64,000 bases of DNA from NCBI GenBank assembly GCA_965368975.1, contig CBDUPA010000002.1:352001-416000 (forward strand). Direction: 5' to 3'. Positions 7,404 to 28,527 of this stretch are shown one piece after another (the first letter of the stretch is position 1; each line of letters opens with the position of its first letter). This DNA comes from an uncultured bacterium. GTDB lineage: Bacteria > Acidobacteriota > Thermoanaerobaculia > Multivoradales > JAHZIX01. The notes beneath the pieces were generated by a model, which saw only the letters and a list, made by a program, of their open reading frames with translations, ran no database searches and had not been told where the DNA came from. The translations under genes were made by a program, and so were the position numbers.

Positions 7404-9959
7404 TCAGTACGCGGCCAACAGACGGGCCGCATCCTCGATCTGCGCCTCCTGCAGCAAGAAGGCGTCTTCGAGCGGTGGTGCATAGGGCACCGGCGTGTCG
7501 AGCGACCCCAGAACACGCACCGGTGCGTCCAGGAACTCGAACACCTCTTCCTGAATCTGCGCCGCCAGGCTCTCTCCGATACCGCCGGTACGCGTGTCCT
7601 CATGTGCGATCAAGACCTTGCCGGTATGGCCAGCAACGGCCAGAACGGCGTCGCGGTCCAGCGGCACCAGGCTGCGCAGGTCGAGCACGGCGGCTTCGAT
7701 GCCATCCGCGGCCAACCGATCCGCGACACGCAGGCAGTGGTGGACATAGGCACCGTACGAGATCAGTGCCAGGTCGCTGCCGGCACGGCGCAGCGCGGCC
7801 TTGCCGAGTGGTAGCGGCTCGGGTGCTCCCGGTTCCAGACGCTGCTTGATCCGCGGCTCGCGGTACAGCGCGATGTGTTCGTAGTAGAGCACCGGGTCCG
7901 GATCCGCAACGGCAGCAGCCAACAGCGCGCGCGCATCCTCGGGCGTCGACGGTGCGACGATTTTGAGCCCCGGCGTCCGGTAGAACCAGGCTTCGGTATT
8001 CTGGCTATGGTAGGGCCCGGCGCGGCGCAGACCACCCCAGGGCATGCGCACTACCATCGGCACCTCGCCACCCCAGCGGTAGCGAATTTTGGCCGCGTTG
8101 TTGACCAGCTGGTTGAAGCCGCTGGCGACGAAGTCGTTGAACTGGATCTCGCCAATCGGCCGCAGGCCGGCGAGGGCCGCGCCGATGCAGGCGCCCAAGA
8201 TGCCGCCCTCGGCTAGCGGTGCGTTGACGATGCGATCGCCGAACTCGTCGAGCAGCGGCCGCAGGAGCAGGAAGGCATTGCCGTAGGCACCACCGACGTC
8301 CTCGCCATAGACAAAGGTACGGGCGTCGCCACGCAGCGCATCGCCGACGCCGAGCATGACGGCCTCCAGCAGCGTGCTGCCTTTCGGATCGACCGGCAAA
8401 CCCGGCTCGAGCGGCGGCAACTCCGCGGCCGTGGGTGCTGCCGCTCGACGCTGCTCCAGGATCTCGACGTGCCGGCGGATGGGACCCTCCGCGTCGACGC
8501 CCTGCCCGGCCTCTTGCGCTGCCGGCCAGGGCGCCTCGATCACCGCGCGGGCCTCGCGCTCGACCAGCTCTTCGGCCTCGCGCCGGAGCTGCTCCAGTTC
8601 GCCATCGGCCAGCAACCCCTGTTCCCGCAGGCGCTCAGCGTACTGCGCAATCGGATCGCGCTGGCGCCAGTAGGCGTAGGCGTCCGGGTTGGCGTAGCCA
8701 CCGGGCTGCAGTGGCGGGTAGTCCCAGCCGGACTGCGCGCTCGACTGTGAACTCGATTGCCAGCTCGACGGGGGCTCCTTGCCCAGATAGAGCATGTCGT
8801 CGTGGTGAGCGTGGCCGCACATGCGCATGGCGACCAGTTCCAGGAGCGCCGGCCCTGCTCCCTGACGCGCTCGCTCGGCGGCCCAGGTGAAGGCCGCGAC
8901 GATCGCCTCGGGATCAGTGCCGTCGAGCGTGATGCCGGGAATGCCGTAGCCCGAGGCCTTGTCGGCAAAGACTCGCACCTGGCTCTGCTCGGCCACCGGA
9001 GTCGACAGCGCCGTCTGGTTGTTCTGCACGCAGAAGAGCACGGGCAGGCGGTGAACGGCGCACAGGTTGATCGCCTCGTGCCACTCACCGAGCGAGGTGC
9101 CGCCTTCGCCGATGAACGACACCGCCACCCGACCGTCGCCCTGGCGCGCCATGGCCATGCCGATGCCGGCGATGGTGGTCGTCGAGATGGACAGCGGCGC
9201 GGTGGCCGGCAGGATGCCCCAGCCGAAATCGCCGATGTGCAGATCCTTGCCCGACATGGCGCCGCCAGCCTTTCCCATCTGCGCCTTCAGCACCATGCGC
9301 ACGGTCAACGGCTCGGGGCGCATGCACAAGGCGGCGCCGAGGTCGCGGATCAGCGGTCCGACGACGTCGCCGCGCCAGCTCGCGGCGCCGCTCTCATCTT
9401 CAGAGCGCCCGTCTTCAGAACGCCCGTCTTCAGAACGCCACGCCGCACCTCGACGCAGACGCAGCGCCGCGGCATAGATCGCTTCCTGGCCCAAGGAGCG
9501 AAAGCCCTTGCCCTGGAACGCCGCCTGGCCGTAGCGGACCTCGCCGCCGCTGAAGAAAGCCTTCAGCCGCAGATCGACGGCACGCGTCAGAATCATGCCC
9601 CGGAGCATCTCGCGCTTCTCTTCGAGTGTCAGCGACGCGGTGATCGCCTCGCGGTGCAAGAAGCCATCGACCGCGTCGAGTAGTTCGTCGATCGCCTGGC
9701 GCTGCCGCTGGAGCACCGAAACGCGTGGCGTCGGCTCGGGCAAGTCACGGAAAGACGTGCTCAACGCCTGGCGTAGGGGTTCTTTGAGCCGCGCACGCAG
9801 AGCTTCCGGATCGCCAGCGTCCGTGCTGGCTGCGGCCTGCTGCAGCACGGGCTCGACAGCCCCGAAGGCGAAGGGATGACGCTCGACCACGAAGGAACTC
9901 AGACGCGCGAGAAGATCGGCTTTCATGACGCCGCCAAGCTTAGCGTACGCTCGGGTCAT
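7404..9959 (-). CDS. Fused 2-oxoacid dehydrogenase E1 alpha/beta with N-terminal extension
   Basis: GQEA, FIGEGG..QNN TPP motif, GHAHHD, YGEDVG, EIQFNDF, GPYHSQ, transketolase C-terminal domain; ATG 9959 overlaps xth stop (ATGA). Confidence 0.88.
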   Translation of the reverse strand: MTRAYAKLGGVMKADLLARLSSFVVERHPFAFGAVEPVLQQAAASTDAGDPEALRARLKEPLRQALSTSFRDLPEPTPRVSVLQRQRQAIDELLDAVDGFLHREAITASLTLEEKREMLRGMILTRAVDLRLKAFFSGGEVRYGQAAFQGKGFRSLGQEAIYAAALRLRRGAAWRSEDGRSEDGRSEDESGAASWRGDVVGPLIRDLGAALCMRPEPLTVRMVLKAQMGKAGGAMSGKDLHIGDFGWGILPATAPLSISTTTIAGIGMAMARQGDGRVAVSFIGEGGTSLGEWHEAINLCAVHRLPVLFCVQNNQTALSTPVAEQSQVRVFADKASGYGIPGITLDGTDPEAIVAAFTWAAERARQGAGPALLELVAMRMCGHAHHDDMLYLGKEPPSSWQSSSQSSAQSGWDYPPLQPGGYANPDAYAYWRQRDPIAQYAERLREQGLLADGELEQLRREAEELVEREARAVIEAPWPAAQEAGQGVDAEGPIRRHVEILEQRRAAAPTAAELPPLEPGLPVDPKGSTLLEAVMLGVGDALRGDARTFVYGEDVGGAYGNAFLLLRPLLDEFGDRIVNAPLAEGGILGACIGAALAGLRPIGEIQFNDFVASGFNQLVNNAAKIRYRWGGEVPMVVRMPWGGLRRAGPYHSQNTEAWFYRTPGLKIVAPSTPEDARALLAAAVADPDPVLYYEHIALYREPRIKQRLEPGAPEPLPLGKAALRRAGSDLALISYGAYVHHCLRVADRLAADGIEAAVLDLRSLVPLDRDAVLAVAGHTGKVLIAHEDTRTGGIGESLAAQIQEEVFEFLDAPVRVLGSLDTPVPYAPPLEDAFLLQEAQIEDAARLLAAY
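9396..9440. repeat. 15-bp in-frame tandem repeat x3 (RSEDG units)
   Basis: ATCTTCAGAGCGCCC GTCTTCAGAACGCCC GTCTTCAGAACGCCA. Confidence 0.85.
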
Positions 9960-10762
9960 TGGCCCACGCTCGGGGTGGCAGAGAGCACGGATTCGTCGAG
10001 ATCGACGCTGATCGGACAGTGGTCCGAGCCAAGGACCTCCGGATGAATCCGCGCCTGCCGCAGGTAGGGAAGAGCCCCCGCCGACGCCAGTACGTAGTCG
10101 ATCCGCCAGCCGATGTTGCGCTTGCGCACGCCCTGCCGCTGGCTCCACCAGGTGTAATGCCCCTCGCCAGCTTCGTACTCTCGGAAGGTATCGACCCAAC
10201 CCCGGCGCAGCCAGCGGTCCAGCTCCTCGCGCTCCTCCGGCCGGAAACCGCTGGTCTCGACGTTTTGCTTTGGCCGCGCCAGGTCGATCTCCCGATGCGC
10301 GGTGTTGAAGTCGCCCATCACCAGGATCGGCTCGCCCCGCTGCCGTGCCGGCTCGAGCTGGTCGAACAGCCTGCGGTAGAAGTCCAACTTGTAGGGGACA
10401 CGGCTGTTGTCGCGATTGACGCCGTTACCATTCGGGAAATAGCCGTTGACCAATCGCAGGGCACCGAAGCGCGCCAGCTGCAATCGTCCCTCGACGTCGA
10501 AGCGCTCTTCGCCCAGACGCGTCTCCATCTCGTCGGCTTGGCGGCGAGCCAACAACCCGACGCCACTGTAGCCCTTGCGCTCGGCCGGCGCCCAGTGCGT
10601 CCACCAGTCTTCAGGGGCGCGCACGCTGGCCGGTAGCTGATCGGGCAGCGCACGGATCTCCTGCACCGCGACGATGTCCCCCCCACAGGCCGCTAGCCAG
10701 TCTAAGAATCCCTTGCGCGCGCAGGCGCGCAGTCCATTGACATTCCACGAGTAGATGCGCAT
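9956..10762 (-). CDS. xth: Exodeoxyribonuclease III
   Basis: SWNVNGLRA, QEI, GYSGV, YFPNG, GDFNTAH, GWRIDY, GSDHCP. Confidence 0.95.
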   Translation of the reverse strand: MRIYSWNVNGLRACARKGFLDWLAACGGDIVAVQEIRALPDQLPASVRAPEDWWTHWAPAERKGYSGVGLLARRQADEMETRLGEERFDVEGRLQLARFGALRLVNGYFPNGNGVNRDNSRVPYKLDFYRRLFDQLEPARQRGEPILVMGDFNTAHREIDLARPKQNVETSGFRPEEREELDRWLRRGWVDTFREYEAGEGHYTWWSQRQGVRKRNIGWRIDYVLASAGALPYLRQARIHPEVLGSDHCPISVDLDESVLSATPSVGQ

Positions 10763-10830
10763 GCGCGGAGCATACCGTGAGTTTCGGCGAACACCCGCCG
10801 TGGCGGCAGTATCGACGGTCCCAGAGTCAG

Positions 10831-10860
10831 TTGACAGTCTACTGAGAGCGCAAGTAGCCT
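10831..10860 (+). promoter_or_regulatory. Candidate sigma-70 promoter of the arsA-like operon
   Basis: TTGACA-N18-TAGCCT in an AT-richer divergent intergenic region. Confidence 0.4.
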
Positions 10861-10980
10861 TGTGATACTGTCCGTATTTCCGATGCTTACGTAAAACCAT
10901 AGTTCCATCTGGCAATCTCGGTTTCCTATTGTCATAAGGCTCGGGGCTAATGATCCCCGACTCAGGAGTGAAAGACCCCC

Positions 10981-12210
10981 ATGGCGCGCATTCTGCTGAT
11001 TTCAGGCAAGGGCGGTGTCGGCAAGACGACCGTCGCTGCCGCCACCGCGATGACCGCCGCCAAGCGTGGTCACCGTACGATCGTGATGTCCTTCGACCTG
11101 GCGCACAGCCTGTCGGACTCCTTCGACGTCGATCACGGCCTGTTCAACCAGAACAAGGGGCTGCCGTTCCAGGTGATGGACAACCTGGACATCCAGGAGA
11201 TCGATGTCCAGGGCGAGATCGAACGCCACTGGGGCGACGTCTACCGTTACATCGGCATGCTGCTCACCAGCACCGGTCTCTCCGACATGGTGGCCGAAGA
11301 AGTCGCCATCATCCCAGGCATGGAAGACGTCATTTCGCTGATGTACATCAATGACTACCTGACTCAGGAAAAGTACGACGTCATCGTGGTCGACTGTCCG
11401 CCGACCAGCGATTCGCTGCGCTTCGTCAACATCACGTCGACGCTCGACTGGTACATGCGCAAGCGTTTCAACATCGACCGCAAACTGGTCAAACTGGCAC
11501 GCCCCTTCGCCAACAAGGTGATGGACTACCAGTTGCCCGACGACAGCTACTTCACCGCGATGCAGAAGATCTTCTCCCGCCTCGACGGAGTCGATACCCT
11601 GCTCACCGACCCGCAGGTCACCACGGTGCGCTTGGTCACCAACGCTGAGAAGATGGTGGTGCGCGAGACCCAGCGTGCCTACATGTACTTCTGCATGTAC
11701 GGAGTGATCGCCGACGCGGTGGTGATCAACAAGCTGATCCCCGAGGGCCAGGCCGAGACCGGCTACTTCGCCGACTGGGCGCGCGCGCACGCCGGCTACT
11801 CGGCGGAGATCGAGGAGTACTTCAAGCCGCTGCCGACCTTCAAGGTACCTCTGCAATCCAGCGAGGTGGTGGGCACGAAGCAACTGCAGGAAGTCGCGAC
11901 CGCTCTTTATGGCGACGACGATCCGGCGCAGTTCTACAACCAGGAACCGCCGTACGAGTACGTCAAGGCCGACGACACCTACCAGCTCAGGATCAAGCTG
12001 CCGTTCGTCGACAAACAGGAAGTCGACTTGAGCCGTCACGACCAGGATCTGATCATTCGCATCGGCAGCTTCAAGCGCCACGTCCCGATGCCGCGGTCCG
12101 TACAGAATTTCAAGACCGCCGGTGCAGAGATGAAGGACAATCAACTCACCGTGACCTTCGTCAAGCCCGAACCGGTCCAACCACAACCCAGTCAAGGAGA
12201 AGACTCATGA
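10981..12210 (+). CDS. ArsA/Get3 (TRC40) family ATPase, single ATPase domain plus C-terminal HSP20-like domain
   Basis: GKGGVGKTT P-loop, FDLAHSL switch I, DCPPT switch II, EKMVVRETQR, C-terminal LPFVDK..LIIRIGSFKR beta-sandwich; no ars operon nearby. Confidence 0.92.
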   Translation: MARILLISGKGGVGKTTVAAATAMTAAKRGHRTIVMSFDLAHSLSDSFDVDHGLFNQNKGLPFQVMDNLDIQEIDVQGEIERHWGDVYRYIGMLLTSTGLSDMVAEEVAIIPGMEDVISLMYINDYLTQEKYDVIVVDCPPTSDSLRFVNITSTLDWYMRKRFNIDRKLVKLARPFANKVMDYQLPDDSYFTAMQKIFSRLDGVDTLLTDPQVTTVRLVTNAEKMVVRETQRAYMYFCMYGVIADAVVINKLIPEGQAETGYFADWARAHAGYSAEIEEYFKPLPTFKVPLQSSEVVGTKQLQEVATALYGDDDPAQFYNQEPPYEYVKADDTYQLRIKLPFVDKQEVDLSRHDQDLIIRIGSFKRHVPMPRSVQNFKTAGAEMKDNQLTVTFVKPEPVQPQPSQGEDS

Positions 12211-12437
12211 ATGACATCGTCAATCAGCTAGCGCAACTGCAACAGACCATCAAGGACACCGCCATTCGGTTCTCCGGAGGCGCGATCGTCGACAGTGACG
12301 CCTGTCAGAAGTTGTCCAAGGGCTTCCTGCGCGCGCAGGCCGAAATCCTGAAGGCGGCGCTGGAAGTCACTGAGGACGAACTCAACCGCGAGCCGGCCAG
12401 CACGGACGAGAACAACGGCAAGATTAACGTCAGCTGA
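12207..12437 (+). CDS. Small helical hypothetical protein coupled to the ArsA/Get3 ATPase
   Basis: ATGA overlap with ATPase stop, SD AGGAG, gene-like codons, amphipathic helix FLRAQAEILKAALE. Confidence 0.75.
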   Translation: MNDIVNQLAQLQQTIKDTAIRFSGGAIVDSDACQKLSKGFLRAQAEILKAALEVTEDELNREPASTDENNGKINVS

Positions 12438-12574
12438 ACCGACGTCCTCGGTAGCTCAGCGTCGAGCCAGGTCAGAGGACTGACACCTCAAGCTGGCTCT
12501 TCAAGTTTGGTGTGCACGCCAGACAGAGCGTGATCACAGTTTCATTTCTCCAGCTTCAGGAGCAGGGAGTCGAC

Positions 12575-13711
12575 ATGCGCATTCTGACCATGGATGGAGG
12601 AGGCAATCAGAGCCTCTTCACCCTCGCACTGCTGCGCCGCATCGAAGCGGCCAGACCCGGCTTCCTGGCCAGCATCGACATGTTTGCGGGCACCTCCTCG
12701 GGCGGCATCAACGCCATCCTGATGGCCGCGACGGAACCGAAGGAAGTGCCACGGCGAGAAGCCTTGGCGGATGCCAGGTACTTGTGGGAGAGCGGAAACG
12801 TCTTCGAGACCACCTATGTCAAGATGCTGCAAGGACTCGGTGGCTGCAGGGCCATGATCAGCAACGACAATCTGAAGCAGTTCTTGACCCAGAAACTCGG
12901 CGAACGAACGCTAGGCGATTTGAACGCGAAGATCGCTATCACCGCCTTCGACAACACGGATCGAATCAACAAGAGAAGCTGGTCTCCGAAGGTCTTCCAC
13001 AACTTCCCGAGGAACCACGAAACGGAGCCCGATCTAGCGCTCCAAGCGGTCGAAGTGGCACTCTCCACGAGCGCGGCGCCCGTGTTCTTCCCCATTCACA
13101 ACGGCTATTCCGACGGTGGACTGTTCGCCAATAATCCCGCGGCTTGTGCCCTGGCGCAAGCACACTCGACCAAGGGCGGCCAGGTACCTCTCGAAGACAT
13201 CAAGCTCCTGTCCGTCGGAACCGGCGGCAGTGAGCGGCATCTGGATGTCACCAACGACAGTTGGGGATACTCACAGTGGCTGCTCAATCCTTGCGACCCA
13301 CTGACCCTGATCGAAGCCGTCTTCCGAGGCACCACGATGGCGGCGGATTACCAGTGCCGGGCAATGCTGGAAGATCGCTTCTTCCGACTCAACCCTCTGG
13401 TTCCCAAGAACCTGGACCTGGACTTCGAAGACGAGTTCAAAGACGCTTCGACTCCCGGCGTCAAGCAGCAGCTTCAGGTCCTCATGGAAAAGGTCGACAA
13501 CACTCCGGTCGAGGGACCGGGAGATCCCGTCGACCTGAATGATGCTCTCGGAACGAACAACATCGAACGCAAGGACTGGCTGGCCGCCGTCCTCGCTTGG
13601 CTCGACCGGAACGAGTGGCATACACCAGCCGAAACCGAATCTACATCCGGCCAGACTCCCAAGAAGACCACCAAGCGTCGAACCACGAGAACCAAGAAGC
13701 CACGTGAGTGA
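12575..13711 (+). CDS. Patatin-like phospholipase/acyl hydrolase
   Basis: ILTMDGGG, GTSSG nucleophile elbow, SAAPVFF, DGGLFANNP, LLSVGTG; basic C-terminal tail. Confidence 0.9.
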   Translation: MRILTMDGGGNQSLFTLALLRRIEAARPGFLASIDMFAGTSSGGINAILMAATEPKEVPRREALADARYLWESGNVFETTYVKMLQGLGGCRAMISNDNLKQFLTQKLGERTLGDLNAKIAITAFDNTDRINKRSWSPKVFHNFPRNHETEPDLALQAVEVALSTSAAPVFFPIHNGYSDGGLFANNPAACALAQAHSTKGGQVPLEDIKLLSVGTGGSERHLDVTNDSWGYSQWLLNPCDPLTLIEAVFRGTTMAADYQCRAMLEDRFFRLNPLVPKNLDLDFEDEFKDASTPGVKQQLQVLMEKVDNTPVEGPGDPVDLNDALGTNNIERKDWLAAVLAWLDRNEWHTPAETESTSGQTPKKTTKRRTTRTKKPRE

Positions 13712-16700
13712 AGAATCCCTTCTCGACATCGCCGTCCTGGCCGCCGCGGGACGCTTTCCGGGAGCGGCCGACCTAGACCAGTTCTGGACCAACCTGAAGC
13801 AAGGGGTGGAAAGCGTTCGGAGCTTCTCGCACCAGGAAATGCTGGACGCCGGTGTCGATCCCGAACAGCTGGCAGATCCGAACTTCGTCGCCGCCCATGG
13901 CGTGCTCGACGATGTCGACCGCTTCGACGCCGAGTTTTTCGGCTTCACCCCGCGGGAAGCTGCTCTGCTCGACCCTCAGCAACGCATCCTGCTCGAGCTT
14001 GGCTGGAATGCCCTCGAACAAGCCGGCTACGGTGACGCGGGGGATCGTGGCCGGGTCGGCGTCTTCGCTGGCGCCGGCCGCAGCGGCTACGAGGCCCGGG
14101 CGCGTGCGGCCAGCCATAGCGGCGAGGACGAGGGCGACACCGGCGACGAGCTGAGCGTCTCGCTGGGCAACGCCAGCGACTTTCTGCCACTGTGGCTGAG
14201 CTACAAGCTCGACCTGCGCGGCCCCAGCGTCAACGTCCAGACCTCGTGCTCGACCGGCCTGGCCGCGATCCACCTAGCGTGCCAGAGCCTGCTGCAGCGC
14301 GAGTGTGACCTGGCCCTGGCCGGGGGCATCTCGGTGGCGGTACCGCAGCAGGCGGGCTACCGCTACCAGGAAGGTAGCATCTTGTCGCCCGACGGGCATT
14401 GCCGTCCGTTCGATCAGGACGCGCGCGGTACCGTCGGCGGTTCGGGAGCTGGACTCGTGGTGCTCAAGCGCCTGGGCGAAGCCCTCGAGGACGGCGACCC
14501 GATTCTTGCTCTGATCAAGGGTTCGGCGATGAACAATGACGGCGCCGGCAAGATCGGCTTCACCGCACCCAGCATCGAAGGACAAGCGGAGGTCATCGCG
14601 GAAGCTCTGGCGGTGGCGGGCGTCGACGCGTCGACCATAGACTACATCGAGGCGCATGGAACCGGAACGCCTCTGGGCGACCCGATCGAGATCGCCGCCC
14701 TGCGCCAAGCCTTCGAACAGCAGAGCTCGGAGGGTACAACGCTGCCGTTGGGCTCTTGCGCCCTCGGTTCGGTCAAGTCCAATGTCGGGCATCTCGACCG
14801 AGCTGCTGGTATCGCCGGTTTCCTCAAGGCTTTGCTGGCCCTGCACCACGGCGAACTGCCACCGACCTTGCACTTCACCGAGCCCAACCCACAGCTACGC
14901 CTCGCCGAGACCCCCTTCCACGTGCAGGCGGAAATCACCCCCTGGAACAGTTGCAACGGCACTGCCGATCCAAGGGTGCGACGCGCTGGCATCAGCTCTT
15001 TCGGTATGGGTGGCACCAACGTCCACGTCATCGTCGAAGAAGCCCCGCGCGCCGAGCCAGCGTCGGTCCCCACGCCGGCGGAAAGTCCACAGCTCCTCGT
15101 GCTCTCCGCACGTACAGCCGCGGCGCTCGAGCGTCGCTGCCAGGATCTCGACGCCCACCTGCAGCGGCACCCGGATCTGGCGCTGGCGGACGTCGCACGA
15201 ACGCTGCAGCGTGGACGGCGGCGCTTTGAGCATCGAGCGGTACTCGTGGCGTGCGACGTCGAGCAAGCCCGCCAGGCTCTGACCTCCGAGGCCTCGGAAA
15301 GCTGGATGCTGCACGGTCCCTCGGGCAGCCACCTCCTGCACACTCGCCGCGACGAGCAGCAGCACCGCGAGGTTGCCTTCCTCTTCCCCGGTCAAGGTGC
15401 GCAGCACCCGGGCTTGGGCAAAGACTTGCTCGGCCATTCCGAGTACAAAGAGCAGCTCCGTGTCTGCGCCGAGCACCTGCGCGAGGACCTGCGCCCCCTC
15501 TTGCCTGCCTACGACGGTGATCTGCTGCGCTTGCTCGAAGACGGTGAGACCGACTCTGACCTGCTGGCCCGCACCGAGATCACCCAGCCGCTGCTGTTCA
15601 GCGTCGAGTACGCGCTGGCCAGGCAGTGGATGGCCTGGGGCGTCCAGCCGGTCGCGATGCTCGGACACAGCGTCGGCGAGTATGTCGCGGCCTGCCTGGC
15701 CGGCGTTTTTAGCCTCGAGACGGCACTACACCTTGTCACCCTGCGCGGACGGTTGATGGCAGCACTGCCGACCGGCGCGATGCTGACGGTACCCCTGCCG
15801 GAGGAAGAGCTGGCGCCGTATCTGGCACAGACGGAGGGCCGGGTGGAGCTAGCCGCGGTCAACAGTCCCGGAGCCTGCGTCGCCAGCGGTACCTCCGAGG
15901 GTGTCGACGCACTGCAGCGGCAGCTCGAAGCCGATGGCCTCGAATGCCGCCGCCTGCAGACCTCGCACGCCTTCCACAGCGCCATGATGGAACCGATCCT
16001 CGACAGCTTCCGTGACACCGTTGCCCAGGTCGAGCTGCAGGCTCCCCAGAAGCGTTTCCTGTCCAACCTCAGTGGCACCTGGATCCGTGACGAGGAAGCC
16101 GTCGATCCCGATTACTGGACCCGTCACCTGCGGTCGACGGTGCGCTTCGCGGATGGCCTGAGTGAGCTACTCCGGGACCCCGAGTTGCTACTGCTGGAAG
16201 TCGGCCCCGGGCGCACGCTGGCTACCCTGGCACGGCAGGTTCCCCTCGGTGCCGAGGCTCCCGAGCGGCTGCTGGTGACGTCCATGCCGACGCCCAAGGA
16301 GGCACCCGAGCGCGACGGCCGCGATGTCCTGCTCCATGCGCTTGGCGAGCTCTGGCTAGCAGGGGTCGACGTCAACTGGCGGGCCTTCCGCCAGAACGAC
16401 TCCGGAGGCCAAGGAAGCCATCGTCGAGTGACCCTGCCCGGCTATCCCTTCGCCGATCAACGTCACTGGATCGACATTCAGCCCACCGACGGCAAGCTGC
16501 AGGTCACGTCCACCGCCAGCGCGCAGGTGGTACCCGAGAAGCAAGCGGACCCGGCCCATTGGTTCTATCTGCCCGTGCTGCAGGAGACGCCACCACGCAT
16601 CCCCGGCACCGTGGATACAAGTGAGGTGGACAGCTGGTTGCTACTCGCCGACCCGGCACGGGCCCAGGAGGTAGCTCAGCTACGCACAACCTTGCAGGAA

Positions 16701-18560
16701 CAGGACACGGCTTGGGTCCATGTCGAGTTCGCGACCGAGGCCCAGGATCTGAATGTCACTGGCTCGCTTGCCGGGGATGCCAAGGTTGGTCCTGTACGGC
16801 GCAGCGACTTTAGCTCCCTGGTGCAGCAGTTGCACGCGGCCGACCGGCTTCCCAAGCACATCTTGTACTTGCCGGCGGTACCCGTCGAGGCTCACGAAGC
16901 CGGCTCCCACGAAGCCCTCGGCAGCAGCAGAGCGGCAGATGCGATTCGTCTCTACTACCCCCTGGTCTATCTGGCACAGGCGCTGAGCGAGACCGGCGAG
17001 CTCGACGGTGTCCGCATCGGCGTGCTAGTCGACGGTGTCCTCCGCCTGCACGAGGCGGAGCCTGTTTCCCCTCTCCTGGCGACCCTGATGGCACCTTGCC
17101 TGGTCCTTCCCCAAGAGCTGGCGGGGCTGCGCTGCCTGCTGCTCGACGCTCCCACCGAGACGGCAACCTCCAAAGCGTGGGCGGGGAAGATCCTGGACGA
17201 GGTGCGAGCCCCCGTGGCCGACGATGGCATTCTGGCCGCCGTCGCCCTCCGAGGGCATCGGCGCTGGCAGGCGGATTTCAGCGCCATCCCTCTTCCAGCT
17301 TCACCAGGTCTCTCGGCAACGAACCTGCGGCCCGGCGGCACCTACATGATCACCGATGGCGTCGGCAGCCTGGGCTCGATGCTCGCACGGGCCCTGGTCG
17401 ACACCGTGACGGCCGAGGGTGGCGAAGCACCACGGCTAGCCCTGCTGACACCCGGTGAGTTCCCGCCGCCCGCGGAATGGGAGCGCATTCTGGGAGCCAG
17501 CGAGGAGACCCCTCTGCGCACCGCTGTCGAGCAGCTGCAGGCGCTGGTCGATCGAGGCGTCCAGCTACTCGTGCTGCGCGCCAGCAGTAGCGACGCGGCC
17601 GCGTTGCAGGGTGCTCTCGACCAGGTACATGAACGTTTCGGTCCCATTCACGGCGCCTTCCACACCGAGCACAGCCCCGGCGCCGGCCTGGTCGCTCTGC
17701 GCAGTGCCGACACGGCCATCGAAGTGCTGCGAGCACGAACCACGGGCATGGACAATCTTGCCGACGCTCTGGAGGCTCTGCAGAGCGGCACGCAGGGGGA
17801 GGATTCCGTCGAGCTGATCGTGCTGTGCTCGTCGATCGCTGGCATCATGGGCGGCTTCGGGCTGCTCGATCACGCTGCCTCGGCCTGCTACCTGGACGCC
17901 AGCAGCGCCACCCTGTCCGGCCGGTTCCCGCAAGCCCGGGTCCTGACACTCGATTGGGGACCCTCGCACTGGGAAGACTGGCAAGAAGCCCTGATCACCG
18001 CCGCACCCGAGCTGCGTGAACAGCTGCGACAGTCGCGTCTCAGCTACGGCCTGAGCGTCGAGGAAGGCGCCGAGGTGCTACGCCGTGGCCTCGCTAGCGG
18101 CCTGCCTCACTTGATCGTCTCGACGCAGGACCTACGAGCCGCGATCCGTAACCAGCTATCGCTCGGTCAGATGCAGAACCAGACCAACGCCGCTGGCCAA
18201 CTCGGCACCGGCTCGAGCCGTGAACACGTGGCGCCGCGCGACGAGGTCGAGGAGCAGGTGGCGGACGTCTGGCTGGAGCTGTTCGGCGTTCCACGCATCG
18301 GCATCCACGACGACTTCTTCGAGATCGGTGGTCACTCTCTGCTGGCCATCCAGGTCGTCTCCCGCTTGCGCAAGCGGCTGCAGGTCGAGCTCCCGATGCC
18401 CATTCTGTTCGAAGCTCCGACGGTCGCACAGCTCGCCGATCACGTACGTCAGCAGCAGGGCCAGCAAGAGAGCCTGGCTGAGGTCGAGGCCATGCTGGCC
18501 GAGATCGAAGGACTGAGTCTGGACGAGGTGCGGGCCGAACTGGATACTCCGGAACCCTGA
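13704..18560 (+). CDS. Type I PKS single module: KS-AT-KR(degenerate)-carrier protein
   Basis: KS: DPQQR, VQTSCST, HGTGT, KSNVGH; AT: GQGAQ, GHSVG, HAFH; KR-like ITDGVGSLG; carrier DFFEIGGHSL; GTG 13704 overlaps patatin stop. Confidence 0.93.
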   Translation: MSEESLLDIAVLAAAGRFPGAADLDQFWTNLKQGVESVRSFSHQEMLDAGVDPEQLADPNFVAAHGVLDDVDRFDAEFFGFTPREAALLDPQQRILLELGWNALEQAGYGDAGDRGRVGVFAGAGRSGYEARARAASHSGEDEGDTGDELSVSLGNASDFLPLWLSYKLDLRGPSVNVQTSCSTGLAAIHLACQSLLQRECDLALAGGISVAVPQQAGYRYQEGSILSPDGHCRPFDQDARGTVGGSGAGLVVLKRLGEALEDGDPILALIKGSAMNNDGAGKIGFTAPSIEGQAEVIAEALAVAGVDASTIDYIEAHGTGTPLGDPIEIAALRQAFEQQSSEGTTLPLGSCALGSVKSNVGHLDRAAGIAGFLKALLALHHGELPPTLHFTEPNPQLRLAETPFHVQAEITPWNSCNGTADPRVRRAGISSFGMGGTNVHVIVEEAPRAEPASVPTPAESPQLLVLSARTAAALERRCQDLDAHLQRHPDLALADVARTLQRGRRRFEHRAVLVACDVEQARQALTSEASESWMLHGPSGSHLLHTRRDEQQHREVAFLFPGQGAQHPGLGKDLLGHSEYKEQLRVCAEHLREDLRPLLPAYDGDLLRLLEDGETDSDLLARTEITQPLLFSVEYALARQWMAWGVQPVAMLGHSVGEYVAACLAGVFSLETALHLVTLRGRLMAALPTGAMLTVPLPEEELAPYLAQTEGRVELAAVNSPGACVASGTSEGVDALQRQLEADGLECRRLQTSHAFHSAMMEPILDSFRDTVAQVELQAPQKRFLSNLSGTWIRDEEAVDPDYWTRHLRSTVRFADGLSELLRDPELLLLEVGPGRTLATLARQVPLGAEAPERLLVTSMPTPKEAPERDGRDVLLHALGELWLAGVDVNWRAFRQNDSGGQGSHRRVTLPGYPFADQRHWIDIQPTDGKLQVTSTASAQVVPEKQADPAHWFYLPVLQETPPRIPGTVDTSEVDSWLLLADPARAQEVAQLRTTLQEQDTAWVHVEFATEAQDLNVTGSLAGDAKVGPVRRSDFSSLVQQLHAADRLPKHILYLPAVPVEAHEAGSHEALGSSRAADAIRLYYPLVYLAQALSETGELDGVRIGVLVDGVLRLHEAEPVSPLLATLMAPCLVLPQELAGLRCLLLDAPTETATSKAWAGKILDEVRAPVADDGILAAVALRGHRRWQADFSAIPLPASPGLSATNLRPGGTYMITDGVGSLGSMLARALVDTVTAEGGEAPRLALLTPGEFPPPAEWERILGASEETPLRTAVEQLQALVDRGVQLLVLRASSSDAAALQGALDQVHERFGPIHGAFHTEHSPGAGLVALRSADTAIEVLRARTTGMDNLADALEALQSGTQGEDSVELIVLCSSIAGIMGGFGLLDHAASACYLDASSATLSGRFPQARVLTLDWGPSHWEDWQEALITAAPELREQLRQSRLSYGLSVEEGAEVLRRGLASGLPHLIVSTQDLRAAIRNQLSLGQMQNQTNAAGQLGTGSSREHVAPRDEVEEQVADVWLELFGVPRIGIHDDFFEIGGHSLLAIQVVSRLRKRLQVELPMPILFEAPTVAQLADHVRQQQGQQESLAEVEAMLAEIEGLSLDEVRAELDTPEP

Positions 18561-18587
18561 ACTGCGCTGGACGAAGCTACACGCGTC

Positions 18588-19808
18588 ATGGACGACCTGC
18601 AACAGCGACTGGCCTCGCTGGCCCCGGAGCAACGGCGACTGCTGGAGAAACGCCTGAAGCAAAAGGGTCTCGACCAGGCCTTACAAACTCCCACTCAGCC
18701 GCCCGCACATCACGTGGTCATCGAGGCTCCGGGCGAGGCCCCGGATCCTGCCGTGATCGCGGACCGGACGATGGCCTTCAGCCTCTTCTTCTTCTCCGGT
18801 GATGGCTCTTCGAACCGCGATGACAAGTACGACCTGCTGCTCGAAGCAGCTCGCTTCGGCGACCAGCACGGCTACACCGCGGTGTGGACGCCGGAACGCC
18901 ATTTCCAGGACTTCGGTGGCCTCTATCCCAACCCTGCCGTCGTCGGTGCTGCTCTCGCCGCGGTAACCGAGAACATCCAGATCCGCGCCGGCAGTGTCGC
19001 GGTCCCTCTGCATGACCCGATCCGCATCGCGGAAGAGTGGTCGGTGGTCGACAATTTGTCCAAGGGCCGCGTCGCGCTGTCCGTGGCGTCCGGTTGGTAT
19101 CCGCGAGATTTCGCCCTGGCGCCCGACAAGTTCGAGAATCGCAAGGCGATCCTGTACGAGACTCTGGACGTGCTCCAGCATCTCTGGTCCGGCGGCACTG
19201 TCCGCCGGGCGATCCCCGGCGGCGAAGAACTCGACCTCGGTATCCTGCCGCGCCCGCTGCAAGCGGAACTCAAGTTCTGGATCGCGATCTCCGGCAACCC
19301 GGAATCCTGGGCCCAAGCCGGCGAGATCGGCGCCAACGTGCTGACCGGCCTGCTCAATCAGCCCTTCGATGAGCTCGCCGAGAAAATCGAAATCTACCAC
19401 CGCAGTCTCGAAGCCCACGGCCACGATCCCGCCGACAAGGTCATCTCGGTGATGCTGCACACCTGCGTGGGCACTGACACCGAGGAGGTCAAGGAACTCG
19501 TGCGCGAACCCCTGACCGAGTACTTCAGCACCTACTTGACGCAGCACGAGAGCTTGAGCCTGGCCGGGGAGTCCGTGAGCCCCGAGGAGAAGCGTGCGCT
19601 GATGGAAGTCTCCTTCGAGCGCTACTTCTACTCACGCACCCTCTGCGGCTCCGTCGACACCTGCTCCCAGCTCGTCGAGCGCCTGCTCGCCATCGGTGTC
19701 AACGAGGTCGCCTGCCTACTCGACTACGGCCTCGACGTCGAAGCAACACTGGCGAGCCTCGAGCACCTGAATGTGCTCAAAGAGCGCTTCGCGGTACCGC
19801 GCAAGTGA
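18588..19808 (+). CDS. MupA-type luciferase-like flavin monooxygenase with N-terminal docking helix
   Basis: FSLFFFS, AVWTPERHF, FGGLYPNP, RIAEEWSVVDNLSKGRV, GVNEVACLLDYG; N-terminus LASLAPEQRRLLEKRL. Confidence 0.9.
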   Translation: MDDLQQRLASLAPEQRRLLEKRLKQKGLDQALQTPTQPPAHHVVIEAPGEAPDPAVIADRTMAFSLFFFSGDGSSNRDDKYDLLLEAARFGDQHGYTAVWTPERHFQDFGGLYPNPAVVGAALAAVTENIQIRAGSVAVPLHDPIRIAEEWSVVDNLSKGRVALSVASGWYPRDFALAPDKFENRKAILYETLDVLQHLWSGGTVRRAIPGGEELDLGILPRPLQAELKFWIAISGNPESWAQAGEIGANVLTGLLNQPFDELAEKIEIYHRSLEAHGHDPADKVISVMLHTCVGTDTEEVKELVREPLTEYFSTYLTQHESLSLAGESVSPEEKRALMEVSFERYFYSRTLCGSVDTCSQLVERLLAIGVNEVACLLDYGLDVEATLASLEHLNVLKERFAVPRK

Positions 19809-19863
19809 CCCCAAGAACCCTCAGCAGGAATGACTACCGAGTACTGAGCACGGGTAGGTCTGC

Positions 19864-20331
19864 TCAAGGATTGGCACCGGAATTCACCTCCAGTAACTGC
19901 TCCAAGTCCACTCGATCTTGCCCGCGATTCGCCGATCGCTTGGCGGCAATCAGATCTTCGAGCGAGAGGTACTGCCCTGCGGCAGCGCCATACTGCCCTT
20001 CCACCCGCCGATCCCAAGCAGCCTGAAAGTCGGCGACACCCTGAAGACCTGAGATCAGGTCGATTCTGGTTGGCGCTACGCCTAGCTGGACTACCGAATC
20101 CAGATTGCACAGATCCTCGATCGTCAAGCCGAGGTCGTAACCACCAAAGAACTCGCGGATCACCTCTAGTACGAGCACTGCATTCTGCTCTGACGATTCG
20201 ATGTAGAGGTCCAAGTCCTTGGTCGCTCGCGGCTGTGCATAGAAGGCCACCGCGTGCGCGCCGACGATCAGATACTTAGCCCCACGGGCGTTCAATAACG
20301 CGACAAACTCTTCGTAGTCGGGGGAGTTCAT
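19864..20331 (-). CDS. Nucleotidyltransferase-fold protein (toxin-antitoxin-like)
   Basis: YLIVGAHAVAFYAQPRATKDLD and LIAAKRSANRGQDRVD motifs. Confidence 0.8.
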   Translation of the reverse strand: MNSPDYEEFVALLNARGAKYLIVGAHAVAFYAQPRATKDLDLYIESSEQNAVLVLEVIREFFGGYDLGLTIEDLCNLDSVVQLGVAPTRIDLISGLQGVADFQAAWDRRVEGQYGAAAGQYLSLEDLIAAKRSANRGQDRVDLEQLLEVNSGANP

Positions 20332-20515
20332 GGATCCCTTGGGTCTTGAGCGTGCTGAGTAAGCAGGCTCCCACAGCATTGACACGCTGAGCCGGCGTCA
20401 TGGACTGCCAGAACCGGAAGTCCTCCTCGGCCTCTAGCTCCCGCGGAACGACTTTCGCCGTCCAAAGACGGCCGCGCTTGTCTGTCGCTTGGCCGCGAAT
20501 CTCAACTTTCGCCAT
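20276..20515 (-). CDS. Small partner protein of the nucleotidyltransferase
   Basis: Strong SD TAAGGAGGT; DFRFWQSMTPAQRV motif; overlaps the NTase start by 56 nt. Confidence 0.7.
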   Translation of the reverse strand: MAKVEIRGQATDKRGRLWTAKVVPRELEAEEDFRFWQSMTPAQRVNAVGACLLSTLKTQGIHELPRLRRVCRVIERPWG

Positions 20516-20568
20516 CAGCTTACCTCCTTACCAAGCCCGATTTCTGCAGGATACCAAGCGAGGAGAGT

Positions 20569-21987
20569 TTACTGCCAGTCGATCAAGTACGGCGGCACCA
20601 TGAGCAGCACCGCAAGCAGGAAGAAGATGGCTTGTAGAGGCAGGATCCAGCGTGCCCACTTCGCCCAGTCGACCTCGGCCAGCGTCAGCACGCCCATGGT
20701 GACGGCGGAGGTCGGGATGATCAGGTTGCTGAAGCCATCCCCGAACTCGAAGGCGAGCACGGCGGTCTGACGGGTGACACCGGCGAGATCGGCGAGTGGG
20801 GCCATGATCGGCATGGTCAGCGCCGCCTGGCCGCTGCCCGAGGGCATGACGAAGTTGATGACGGTCTGGACGACCACCATCAGCTGACTGGTGACGATTG
20901 GGTGGAACTGCCCGATGATGCCGGCCAGGCTGTGCAGAATCGTGTCGATGATGCGACCCTCGGTCGCGAGGACCAGGATGCTCTGCGCCAAGGCGATCAC
21001 CAGCGCGGTCGCGACGAGATCCTTGGCACCGGTGACAAAGGAGTCACTGATCTCACTTAGACGCAAGCCTCCGAGGAGACCAGCGGCGAGTGCGATCGAC
21101 AGGAAGATGCCGGCGATTTCTTCGATGTACCAGCCTTCGACGGCGACTCCGTAGACCAAGACGAGCATGCCAGCAGCAAAGCTGAGTAAGACCGCGATAT
21201 GGCGGTGATCCATGGCGGTGCTTTCCGCGACGCTCGTAGGCTCGTCCGGGCTCAGCATGTGCAGAGTGGCTCGGCGTTTCTCGTCCTGCTCGTAGGTGGG
21301 ACTGGTTTCAGGCCTCTTGGCGATGCGCGCGGCGTAGGCCATGACGAAGACGATGGCGGCGGTCGTGACCACCGACCATACGATCAGGCGGTAGCCAAAG
21401 CCGGAAGCGGGCGGCAGTTCGGCGATGGTCTGCGCGATCTGGACAGTGAAGGGATTGAAGAAGGCTCCCGCGAAGCCGGCCCCGGCGCCGATGAAGGGAA
21501 TCGCGACGCCGACGATCGAGTCATAACCGAGGGCCAGCGCCAGCGGGACGAAGATCAGGACGAAAGGGATGACTTCTTCACTCATTCCGAAGACGGCGCC
21601 AGCAAGCGAGAAAAGCAGCATGAAGATGGGAATCGCGCCCCGACGGACGGCCGCGGAGCGGTGACTGGCACGCACGACGGCTCGAATCGCGGCGTCGATG
21701 GCACGGGTGCGATGCAGCACACCGAAGGCACCCCCGACCAGCAGGACGAACCCGATGACGTCCGCCTTGCCTTGGAAGCCGCGTATCGGTGCCAGCAGAA
21801 CCGCGTCGAGCCCCTGCGGGTGGCGGGGAACCGATGCGAAGCTCTCCGGATCGACCACGGAACGGCCAGCCTTCTCGACACGCTGGTACTCGCCCCCGGG
21901 CAGTACCCAGGTCAGCAACGCCACCAGGACCAGGAAGCCACTCAGCAAGACGAAGGTATTGGGTGCACGCAGCCGTCGTAGATCCAT
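20569..21987 (-). CDS. yfcC: YfcC family (ion transporter superfamily) antiporter/permease
   Basis: LTWVLPGGEY, FGMSEE, NPFTVQIAQ, PSGSGQAALTMPIMAPL, FGDG; multi-TM. Confidence 0.88.
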   Translation of the reverse strand: MDLRRLRAPNTFVLLSGFLVLVALLTWVLPGGEYQRVEKAGRSVVDPESFASVPRHPQGLDAVLLAPIRGFQGKADVIGFVLLVGGAFGVLHRTRAIDAAIRAVVRASHRSAAVRRGAIPIFMLLFSLAGAVFGMSEEVIPFVLIFVPLALALGYDSIVGVAIPFIGAGAGFAGAFFNPFTVQIAQTIAELPPASGFGYRLIVWSVVTTAAIVFVMAYAARIAKRPETSPTYEQDEKRRATLHMLSPDEPTSVAESTAMDHRHIAVLLSFAAGMLVLVYGVAVEGWYIEEIAGIFLSIALAAGLLGGLRLSEISDSFVTGAKDLVATALVIALAQSILVLATEGRIIDTILHSLAGIIGQFHPIVTSQLMVVVQTVINFVMPSGSGQAALTMPIMAPLADLAGVTRQTAVLAFEFGDGFSNLIIPTSAVTMGVLTLAEVDWAKWARWILPLQAIFFLLAVLLMVPPYLIDWQ

Positions 21988-24907: not shown

Positions 24908-25154
24908 AAGTTGTTTGGCCTCTGAATGGCCGCTGGATCGACCCGGTGTTGGGTCGGGGCAAGAACGGACATGAGTTCGACGTGACACCCGATCTCGACT
25001 GGACATCCGAATTCACCGCTTTGTGTCGTGTAGACTACAGTTTCCAACCGCCGGGCGCTACTCGACTTCCGGCTGTTCTCTGATCTGGCTTGCCAGCACG
25101 CTTCCGTTCCCGATCCAAGCCGTTCCGTTCACCGCCTCACTCTCAGTAGAACCC

Positions 25155-25628
25155 ATGGCCAAGGCAAAGTCTTCCGAACCGCGGATACTGGCGCGCAACC
25201 GCAAGGCGCTGCACGACTACGAGGTGCTGGAGTCGGTCGAGGCCGGTATCCAACTGACCGGCGCGGAGGTCAAGTCCGCGCGGCAGGGACGCGTGCAGCT
25301 CAAAGAGAGCCATGTCGAGATCATCGACGGCCAAGCCTACCTGATCGGGGCTCACATCAGTCCGTACAGCCACAGTACCCACGACCTGCCGCAGGCGGAG
25401 CGACGCCGGAAGCTACTACTGCACCGCCGTCAAATCGACAAGTTCTTCGGTCGCTCGCTGCAGAAGGGCCTGACCGTCGTGCCGCTGTCCATGTACCTCA
25501 AGGGTCCCTGGATCAAGCTCGATATCGCCCTGGTGCAGGGCAAGAAGCTGTACGACAAACGGCAGGCCGAGAGACGCAAGACCCTCGACGCTGAGGCGCG
25601 CGAGGCGATCAAGCAACAGCGCTGGTGA
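25155..25628 (+). CDS. smpB: SsrA-binding protein
   Basis: NRKALHDYEV, EAGIQLTGAEVKS, RKLLLH, GKKLYDKR. Confidence 0.96.
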   Translation: MAKAKSSEPRILARNRKALHDYEVLESVEAGIQLTGAEVKSARQGRVQLKESHVEIIDGQAYLIGAHISPYSHSTHDLPQAERRRKLLLHRRQIDKFFGRSLQKGLTVVPLSMYLKGPWIKLDIALVQGKKLYDKRQAERRKTLDAEAREAIKQQRW

Positions 25629-25638
25629 GCGCTGCCGG

Positions 25639-25965
25639 TCAGGCGCGTGCCGGGACCCGAATCCGCTGCTGTTCGGGCTCCGCGTGCGGACGGTAGAAGA
25701 TGGCGTTGTGACCAACGACGCCGACCAGCGCACTACTGGAACGCTCCGCGATCTCGGCCGCCAACTGTTTGCGCTCGTCCTTGAACTCGACGAAGCGCAC
25801 CTTGATCAGCTCGTGGCTCTCCAGCGCCTCGACCACGTTGCGCAGTAGGGAATCGGTGATTCCGCTCTTGCCCAAGTGCACCACCGGCTTGACGGCATGA
25901 GCGATGCCGCGCAGGTACTTGCGCTGGAAGCCCTGCAACTCGGGCGCGGTGATCCCGGCTGTCAT
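25639..25965 (-). CDS. yhbY: YhbY/CRM-domain RNA-binding protein
   Basis: RKYLRGIAHAVKPVVHLGKSG, HELIKV, VGHNAIFYR. Confidence 0.92.
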   Translation of the reverse strand: MTAGITAPELQGFQRKYLRGIAHAVKPVVHLGKSGITDSLLRNVVEALESHELIKVRFVEFKDERKQLAAEIAERSSSALVGVVGHNAIFYRPHAEPEQQRIRVPARA

Positions 25966-28418: not shown

Positions 28419-28527
28419 CAGTAGTTCCTCAGTTTGGTGGCGTTGGGAGTCAGGCGGTGCAGGAGGGTAGCGAGCGCACCAAGTCCTGAATGGTAGCACA
28501 GCCTCCTGCAGTGATACCTTCGACGAT

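Follow-up and report, generated by a model that had tools for sequence, protein, structure and literature searches.

A predicted five-gene operon encoding a Get3d-type ATPase, a small partner protein, a patatin-like phospholipase, a single-module polyketide synthase (PKS) and a luciferase-like monooxygenase (LLM) was analyzed in a 64,000-nucleotide stretch of DNA, hereafter called the window (contig CBDUPA010000002.1, positions 352,001 to 416,000), from an uncultured bacterium of the phylum Acidobacteriota. The main finding is that, in the subclade to which this ATPase belongs, the ATPase-partner gene pair recurs directly upstream of megasynthases that start with a condensing domain, which can be either a ketosynthase (KS) or the condensation (C) domain of a non-ribosomal peptide synthetase (NRPS). 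In most cases a patatin gene lies in between. The components are all of known kinds but, as far as can be told, both the cassette and its linkage to a megasynthase are new. Its recurrence before assembly-line enzymes of related soil bacteria suggests, on the basis of synteny, that natural-product synthesis may have a helper system not described so far.

The five genes are co-oriented on the + strand and occupy positions 10981-19808 in the order given above. The ATG of the partner gene overlaps the TGA of the ATPase gene as ATGA, the GTG start of the PKS gene overlaps the patatin stop as GTGAGTGA, and the LLM gene starts 27 nt past the PKS stop. All of these features had been described in a first-pass annotation made from the letters alone, and all are in the sequence. 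The patatin start at 12575 is consistent with the N-termini of its homologs. The PKS is made of KS, acyltransferase (AT), ketoreductase (KR) and acyl carrier protein (ACP) domains, and a Pfam scan of the five proteins detected no AMP-binding, condensation, thioesterase (TE) or loading domain and no fatty acyl-AMP ligase (FAAL), again as previously annotated. Because the genes that flank the cluster on both sides are unrelated and lie on the opposite strand, the cluster can be considered bounded. The locus is a bounded, predicted five-gene thiotemplate operon, in which a PKS module without loader or TE and an LLM carrying a docking motif are preceded by an accessory cassette.

Scanning of the region 10700-20600 yielded no promoter-like sequence and five terminator-like sites, against 5.0 expected by chance. 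Neither a sigma-70-like promoter nor a terminator-like site was found in that scan in the gap between the partner and patatin genes (12438-12574). The equivalent gap is about 115 nt long in one of the loci described below (G018) and 75 nt in another (G680/L013).

Recurrence of the cassette upstream of megasynthases

Loci were collected using two anchors. Patatin-anchored scans considered one genome per species and kept 80 loci from 504 relatives, in addition to 79 loci from metagenome contigs, and each patatin-anchored locus was searched with the window proteins. ATPase-anchored searches covered 401 genomes of the phylum and 300 genomes of the order, and the flanks of the matches were retrieved. 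Duplicates were merged: L012 is the same as G018, and L013, L094 and G680 are a single locus. Locus L101 looks like an end-cut member of the L104 lineage.

Eight distinct loci, including the window, were found to carry ATPases of this kind, at 53% identity or above. In six of them the ATPase-partner pair is followed by a patatin gene, thus forming a trio; in the remaining two it is not. The trio of the window precedes the PKS gene. In G018, an ATPase 59% identical, an 80-aa partner and a patatin are followed by a 14,225-aa NRPS-PKS with a C domain at its beginning and KS-AT-ACP-TE at its end. In G680 (the same DNA as L013 and L094), the ATPase is 61-62% identical, and partner and patatin are followed by a PKS that begins with KS-AT and is cut by the contig end. 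The trio of L104 is followed by an acyl-CoA-dehydrogenase-like gene, a stand-alone adenylation enzyme and a 108-aa carrier-like open reading frame (ORF), while in L095 and L097 the contig ends inside the patatin gene. As for the two loci that do not have a patatin in this position, the ATPase-partner pair of G668 is directly followed by a C-first NRPS. In L105 the order is MbtH-like gene, ATPase-partner pair and C-first NRPS, with a patatin gene paired with a gene for a STAS-domain protein 3 kb upstream. Altogether, thiotemplate genes are found downstream in all six loci whose downstream flank is usable. The concern, raised in the first-pass annotation, that the link between ATPase, patatin and synthase might be private to one genome is not borne out.

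As a control, we examined the 20 best loci of the phylum with less related ATPases (37-51% identical). No patatin, NRPS or PKS was found at these loci, with the sole exception of a weak KS-like match (108 bits) located 6 kb from the ATPase gene in L207. The partner gene is present in most control loci and the other neighbours vary. Phospholipid head-group enzymes (CDP-alcohol phosphatidyltransferase, PAP2 and inositol-1-phosphate synthase) were detected beside the ATPase-partner pair in 4 of 16 loci (L201, L203, L204 and L216).

A search of the accessible full-text literature retrieved no Get3-like ATPase in a biosynthetic cluster, no Get3d partner and no gene combination of this kind. This outcome agrees with the first-pass annotation, which had regarded the composition of the cluster as undescribed.

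Table 1. Features of the operon and its flanks, with positions in the window
Feature	Position	Strand	Match or remark
Exonuclease III-like gene (flank)	9956-10915	-	Unrelated gene, opposite strand
Get3/ArsA ATPase with ArsA_HSP20 domain, 409 aa	10981-12210	+	PF02374 1e-88; PF17886 3.3e-22
Small partner ORF, 76 aa	12207-12437	+	No Pfam/NCBIfam match
Intergenic gap, 137 nt	12438-12574	+	GGAG-rich sequence immediately 5' of the patatin ATG
Long-form patatin-like phospholipase, 378 aa	12575-13711	+	PF01734 2e-20
Single-module type I PKS (KS-AT-KR-ACP), 1618 aa	13704-18560	+	Pfam domains
MupA/Atu3671-family FMN-dependent LLM, 406 aa	18588-19808	+	TIGR04020
DUF2204 nucleotidyltransferase-fold gene (flank)	19864-20385	-	Convergent to LLM, 55 nt from the LLM stop; no PADLOC match
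DcuC gene (flank)	20569-21987	-	Unrelated gene, opposite strand

The ATPase, its small partner and the patatin

The ATPase has the architecture of Get3d, that is, a Get3/ArsA homolog with a C-terminal alpha-crystallin domain. Its translation contains an intact P-loop (GKGGVGKT) and no CxxC motif, and its score with the TIGR00345 model is 229 bits (cutoff, 135). The alpha-crystallin/HSP20-like domain PF17886 spans residues 331-393, and an AlphaFold2 model (pLDDT 81) contains a beta-sandwich at residues 325-394. When the model was compared with solved structures using Foldseek, the top whole-length match was NosGet3d (8egk; 405 columns, E 4.6e-22, TM 0.63/0.71), followed by AtGet3d (8elf; 414 columns), while archaeal and eukaryotic Get3 matched the ATPase part only. 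In phmmer comparisons, the sequence of the ATPase part is nearer to archaeal Get3 (3zq6, 1.6e-38) than to All4481 (1.5e-22, over residues 1-230 only), and the score with the NosAFP equivalog NF050088 (137 bits) is below the cutoff of 325.

Published Get3d proteins (AtGet3d and Nostoc All4481/NosGet3d; Barlow et al. 2023, PMC10248533) share with the window ATPase the C-terminal alpha-crystallin domain, the intact Walker A motif and the absence of CxxC. In the available text of that study, the crystal structure is described as having a closed hydrophobic chamber with a co-purified phospholipid-like ligand of about 750 Da, and binding of a tail-anchored protein in vitro is reported; the role of the alpha-crystallin domain is said to be unclear, and the partners not known. 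Two differences can be pointed out. Published Get3d is presented there as tied to photosynthetic lineages, whereas the host of the window ATPase belongs to the Acidobacteriota, a phylum in which we detected the Get3d-type architecture in 39 of 401 genomes (E<=1e-60). Furthermore, the window-type ATPase always precedes a small partner gene and, in its subclade, megasynthase genes too; neither association appears in the available text (PMC10248533). The ATPase gene is single-copy in the genome that harbors the window and uncommon in the order, where 4 of 300 genomes yielded a match at E<=1e-80.

An arsenite-pump ArsA was considered and discarded: scores with the pump models were far below the cutoffs (78 versus 650 bits for TIGR04291 and 95 versus 800 for NF041417). 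Although both belong to the P-loop superfamily PF02374, the ATPase domain is duplicated in the ArsA pump ATPase of the E. coli R773 type and single in the window protein, which has an alpha-crystallin domain in addition. No ars genes were found among the neighbours of the window ATPase.

The ORF downstream of the ATPase gene probably belongs to a widespread protein family whose genes lie directly 3' of such ATPases. The sequence directly 3' of the ATPase gene was inspected in 27 loci, and an ORF search was carried out in 23 sequences, one from the window and 22 from other loci. All 23 proved to have an ORF directly after the ATPase, with a length of 64-115 aa. These ORFs have in common a helix with the consensus H.xxAxxE.LxAxRSxxDxxI and a C-terminal end with a basic residue and an [ILV]x[ILV] motif. 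In the window partner the conserved helix is 'FLRAQAEILKAAL' and the end is 'KINVS'. The motif occupies positions -4 to -2 in 19 of the 23 partners, and lies within the last 20 residues after K, R or H in 21. When profiles of the cassette-type partners (six sequences) and the widespread type (16 sequences) were aligned by hhalign, the probability was 88% (E 3e-6, 42 columns). A profile search retrieved 824 proteins at E<=0.001; among the 120 matches listed, most are labelled PF27253 in precomputed annotation. Scans of the window partner and four others against Pfam and NCBIfam gave nothing significant. A 'VDSD' stretch led us to consider that the partner might be an acyl carrier protein, an identity that was rejected: the serine is not conserved among partners and there is no PP-binding match.

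The C-terminal IxI motif of small heat-shock proteins (sHSPs) docks on alpha-crystallin domains. As a hypothesis only, the [ILV]x[ILV] end of the partner recalls this motif. Complex prediction with two ATPase copies and one partner, using alignments as input, gave a score of 0.29, the mark being 0.32.

Variants of the pair were also observed. The partners of L214, L216, L217, L218 and L220 contain an extra N-terminal 'EIKIxIPEEL' motif besides a C-terminal end of the KIKVE type, and several others have a CxC motif instead (e.g., CLCMGLGP). In L219 (7343-10865), a single small partner comes after a tandem of three ArsA-family genes (317, 391 and 391 aa), an arrangement that resembles a BagA/BagB-like paralog array.

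The patatin retains the DGGG oxyanion motif, the GTSSG serine and the DGG aspartate. Across 31 patatin sequences, G39, S41, D180, G181 and G182 are invariant and D7-G10 nearly so (>=90%). Its nearest homologs are long forms that share a Trp-rich C-terminal helix (WL..VLAWLDRVGW) and a K/R-rich tail. In the window protein, the helix reads WLAAVLAWLDRNEW and the tail behind it, 30 aa long, contains 9 K/R; the structure model shows a helix at residues 335-345 and then a disordered tail. Helix and tail look like a putative peripheral membrane anchor. A transmembrane anchor is unlikely because the hydrophobic stretch, about 11-14 residues, is too short.

The solved chains nearest to the patatin are phospholipases of cyclic oligonucleotide-based antiphage signaling systems (CBASS; 1.4e-21). 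The protein scores 153 bits with the PADLOC model for CBASS effector phospholipases and 142 bits with the CapV-type model NF041079, the latter below the cutoff of 200. CapV, a CBASS patatin phospholipase activated by cGAMP, shares with the window protein the patatin fold and the Ser-Asp dyad. In contrast to CapV, the window patatin has the additional Trp-rich helix and polybasic tail, and is translationally coupled to a PKS. A defence function was discarded, as no cyclase (CD-NTase) is present among the neighbours and the score does not reach the CapV cutoff.

Patatins were also seen in other contexts. A second patatin paired with a STAS-domain protein is found in L104 (9908-11559) and L105 (9803-11432), and in L104 a methyltransferase and a B12-binding radical SAM enzyme adjoin this pair. 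In L112, L062, L009 and L099, a related patatin comes immediately behind the final synthetase gene, and the synthetases of L112, L009 and L099 have TE domains. Loci L112, L062 and L009 (G003, a genome of the same family as that of the window) contain a conserved cluster made of a PKS with dehydratase, KR and ACP domains, two flavin halogenase-like genes, an NRPS with condensation, adenylation, thiolation and TE domains, the patatin, a glycosyltransferase and an ABC1 kinase. Their patatin is around 36% identical and is not accompanied by the ATPase.

The PKS and the monooxygenase

The domains of the PKS (KS 8-391, AT 559-840, KR 1212-1420 and ACP 1517-1581) are followed by a docking-like C-terminal tail. 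Motifs of the KS (TSCSTG, EAHGTGT and KSNVGH), the AT (GHSVGE and HAFH) and the carrier (GGHSL) are intact, and we take the AT motifs GHSVG and HAFH to indicate malonyl specificity. KR activity involves a catalytic Tyr and an Asn, as well as a glycine-rich NADPH motif. Alignment with the homolog of L239 (G340) revealed LLDHAASA in the window KR where the homolog has QVDYCAANA, so that His and Ala stand in place of Tyr and Asn. Conversely, the glycine-rich motif is kept in the window KR (GVGSLG) and missing from the homolog (GSSDID). Because the one lacks Tyr and Asn and the other the glycine-rich motif, beta-reduction is doubtful in this PKS family, and the window KR is probably inactive. The single extension proposed in the first-pass annotation would therefore probably give a beta-keto product.

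The LLM is recognized by TIGR04020 over residues 64-398 (454 bits, cutoff 244) and has an N-terminal docking-type motif, MDDLQQRLASLAPEQRRLLEKRLKQKGL. Its previous annotation as a docking monooxygenase can therefore be maintained, with the qualification that the docking class is generic, since the motif recurs at six other places in the genome of the window (G000). LLM family members were found in 12 of 401 phylum genomes (a tally that includes G189), mostly as domains of large synthetases.

Units of the PKS-LLM type are present inside NRPS-PKS-LLM-NRPS lines of four other Acidobacteriota genomes (G340, G352, G211 and G229). These units contain a KS 56-61% identical to that of the window, an AT, a KR-like domain and a carrier, and their LLMs are 46-49% identical. 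The first 28 residues of the window LLM recur just ahead of the next NRPS C domain in three of the four lines (L239, L240 and L242). The PKS-LLM pair is not a unique design. What differs is the setting: NRPS modules flank the unit in those four genomes, whereas that of the window is solitary and comes after the ATPase-partner-patatin cassette. A search of 40 relatives gave no PKS ortholog; the highest identity was 61%, within the range of paralogs.

The genome of the window (7.1 Mb, contigs C1-C47) is exceptionally rich in assembly-line genes: in tblastn searches, NRPS/PKS domain hits fell into 42 groups spread over 29 contigs, and there were 28 KS matches. Open frames of up to 14,804 aa are found (contig C25), and two further LLM domains lie within synthetases (C2:503868 and C16:68623).

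By analogy, the nearest precedents for the chemistry proposed below may be the monooxygenase domain of PuwE and the orf2 product in the puwainaphycin (puw) cluster. In the available text on that cluster, the 2-hydroxyl on the acyl chain is ascribed to the flavin monooxygenase domain of the PKS module PuwE, and the patatin-like orf2 has no assigned role (PMC4219810). The likeness lies in acyl-chain extension by a minimal PKS, combined with a monooxygenase, and in the presence of a patatin-like gene in a lipopeptide cluster. In contrast, the puw cluster is described as having a FAAL, an ACP, an aminotransferase, NRPS modules and a TE, none of which is present in the window cluster, and no Get3-like ATPase is mentioned for it in that text (PMC4219810).

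A possible function and its alternatives

The interpretation that we favour over the others, although we consider it possible rather than probable, is that the cassette is directed to lipids and mobilises a membrane-derived acyl chain for the loader-less synthase, with the PKS adding one malonate and the LLM oxidising the product. By means of its polybasic tail and the Trp-rich helix at its C-terminus, the patatin would attach to the membrane on the inner side and take a fatty acyl chain off a phospholipid. The ATPase, presumably with the closed hydrophobic chamber typical of its family, might act together with the partner either to chaperone the hydrophobic tail of the patatin to the membrane or to shield the freed chain. 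The chain could then prime the KS, directly or after activation by a housekeeping enzyme, and the malonyl-specific AT and the KS would add one C2 unit. Given a probably inactive KR, the result would be a beta-ketoacyl-ACP, which the docked LLM might oxidise, most simply by hydroxylation at C2. Release could occur by hydrolysis, catalysed by the patatin or another hydrolase, or the product could be handed over to another line via the generic docking tail. The connection with lipids is suggested by the ligand of Get3d, by the phospholipase-like nature of the patatin and by the head-group enzymes found at 4 of 16 other loci.

Several observations, however, weigh against this interpretation. The window cluster contains neither an acyl-activating enzyme nor a free ACP; a freed fatty acid would therefore have to be activated by housekeeping enzymes, or else be transferred directly, for which no precedent is known. 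In the G018 line, the initial C domain is nearer to the elongation type (Txo2, 1.2e-51) than to solved lipo-initiation C domains (RzmA-type 7c1h, 3.7e-23; CDA-C1, 2.5e-20; surfactin, 2.4e-11). The genes that follow the trio in L104 look like a starter set derived from an amino acid rather than from a fatty acid; its adenylation, dehydrogenase and carrier genes may be comparable to prolyl-to-pyrrolyl cassettes. At two loci (G668 and L105) the ATPase pair adjoins the NRPS with no intervening patatin. The carrier motif GGHSL of the window PKS is of the peptidyl carrier protein (PCP) type, and homologous units sit within NRPS lines, which fits an ancestry in peptidyl handling. Lastly, the cassette is single-copy amid 42 groups of NRPS/PKS hits, and therefore is not a general requirement of megasynthases.

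A broader proposal would be that the Get3d-type subclade and its partner form a dedicated priming factor of megasynthases, in which an ATP-driven chaperone with a hydrophobic chamber works, usually together with a membrane-bound patatin, by transferring an acyl chain from membrane phospholipid to the first KS or C domain and thereby replacing loading by FAAL/ACP or CoA ligase. We regard this proposal as doubtful. If it were true, the Get3d family would gain its first genetically linked partner and client. The supply of starter units to loader-less assembly lines is a recurring problem, and a patatin acting with a Get3-like chaperone would represent an undescribed route from membrane lipids to the assembly line. 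Aside from priming, the Get3d-type ATPase studied here has a translationally coupled partner that is kept across 23 loci and a neighbour that ends in a hydrophobic helix and a basic tail. Its occurrence in Acidobacteriota is likewise of interest for a family associated with photosynthetic lineages in the available text (PMC10248533).

Other explanations place the cassette at the end of synthesis or outside the chemistry altogether. The patatin might release the ACP-bound product by hydrolysis or move it onto a (lyso)lipid, with the ATPase and its partner carrying it to the membrane. Patatins and acyltransferase domains have related folds (SCOP FabD/lysophospholipase-like superfamily). The window PKS has no TE, and related patatins directly follow the last synthetase gene in L112, L062, L009 and L099; a lipid-like ligand in the Get3d chamber (PMC10248533, available text) would also suit a role in delivery. 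We nonetheless find off-loading rather unlikely: the G018 line behind the trio has its own terminal TE, and the synthetases of L112, L009 and L099 have TE domains too; the patatin of the trio loci lies upstream of the synthase and not downstream, and the ATPase pair occurs without patatin in two loci. The idea that the patatin substitutes for a TE, put forward in the first-pass annotation, is weakened because the G018 line has a TE of its own and related patatins are located behind NRPS/PKS genes that end in a TE. Nor can the ATPase pair be a mere carrier of the patatin product, when in G668 and L105 the pair directly precedes an NRPS with no patatin in between. The interpretation given in that annotation is, as a whole, partly supported. 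Comparable doubts affect the view that the ATPase and its partner have no chemical role and are only a holdase or membrane-targeting device for the C-terminal helix of the patatin or for the megasynthase. In the available text (PMC10248533), Get3d is described as binding tail-anchored proteins in vitro, as carrying an alpha-crystallin domain and as lacking known partners. The pair lies directly before NRPS genes and, in L105, after an MbtH-like gene, a position typical of accessory proteins. The conserved helix and basic tail of the patatin are at its extreme C-terminus, and the [ILV]x[ILV] end of the partner resembles the sHSP docking motif. On the other hand, the hydrophobic stretch of the patatin is shorter than a transmembrane anchor, retention of a phospholipase beside synthases would be left unexplained, and the cassette is single-copy despite the dozens of megasynthases in the genome. 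An exclusive chaperone function thus seems rather improbable to us.

Two further explanations question either half of the operon. The PKS-LLM pair might be a left-over or transplanted unit of a hybrid NRPS-PKS line, inactive or acting in trans, and its adjacency to the cassette might go back to a larger cluster in an ancestor. Given the 42 groups of NRPS/PKS hits in the genome, an orphan or trans-acting unit is conceivable. Similar KS-AT-KR-ACP units with docking LLMs are found inside the lines of G340, G352, G211 and G229, Tyr and Asn are missing where expected in the KR, the carrier motif is of the PCP type, the docking motif occurs at six other places in the genome, and the best PKS match in 40 relatives is within paralog range. 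Yet none of the five frames is broken and the motifs of KS, AT and carrier are preserved, the coupling between gene starts is tight, housekeeping genes without NRPS debris make up the flanks, and complete lines are present at other trio loci; a remnant is, in our opinion, quite unlikely. Were it true, the finding would shrink to an unusual accessory cassette. Alternatively, the trio might be a lipid-remodelling or CapV-like defence unit that neighbours megasynthases by chance. Matches of the patatin to CBASS effector models would agree with this, and so would the wider ATPase-partner family, which is not linked to biosynthetic clusters and is sometimes found near lipid genes. However, neither a cyclase nor any other CBASS part is present and the CapV cutoff is not reached. 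In six of six informative loci the cassette adjoins synthases, which differ from locus to locus, with -8 to +21 nt between stop and start; such adjacency is far beyond chance, even in NRPS-rich genomes. An independent module appears highly improbable.

Elsewhere in the window, two long fused genes of the E1-type 2-oxoacid dehydrogenase kind were observed less than 20 kb apart (7404-10199 and 25965-28559, both on the - strand), each with E1_dh and transketolase domains within one frame. In the SmpB gene (24975-25628, + strand), around 70 residues precede the SmpB domain, and the true start is probably further downstream.

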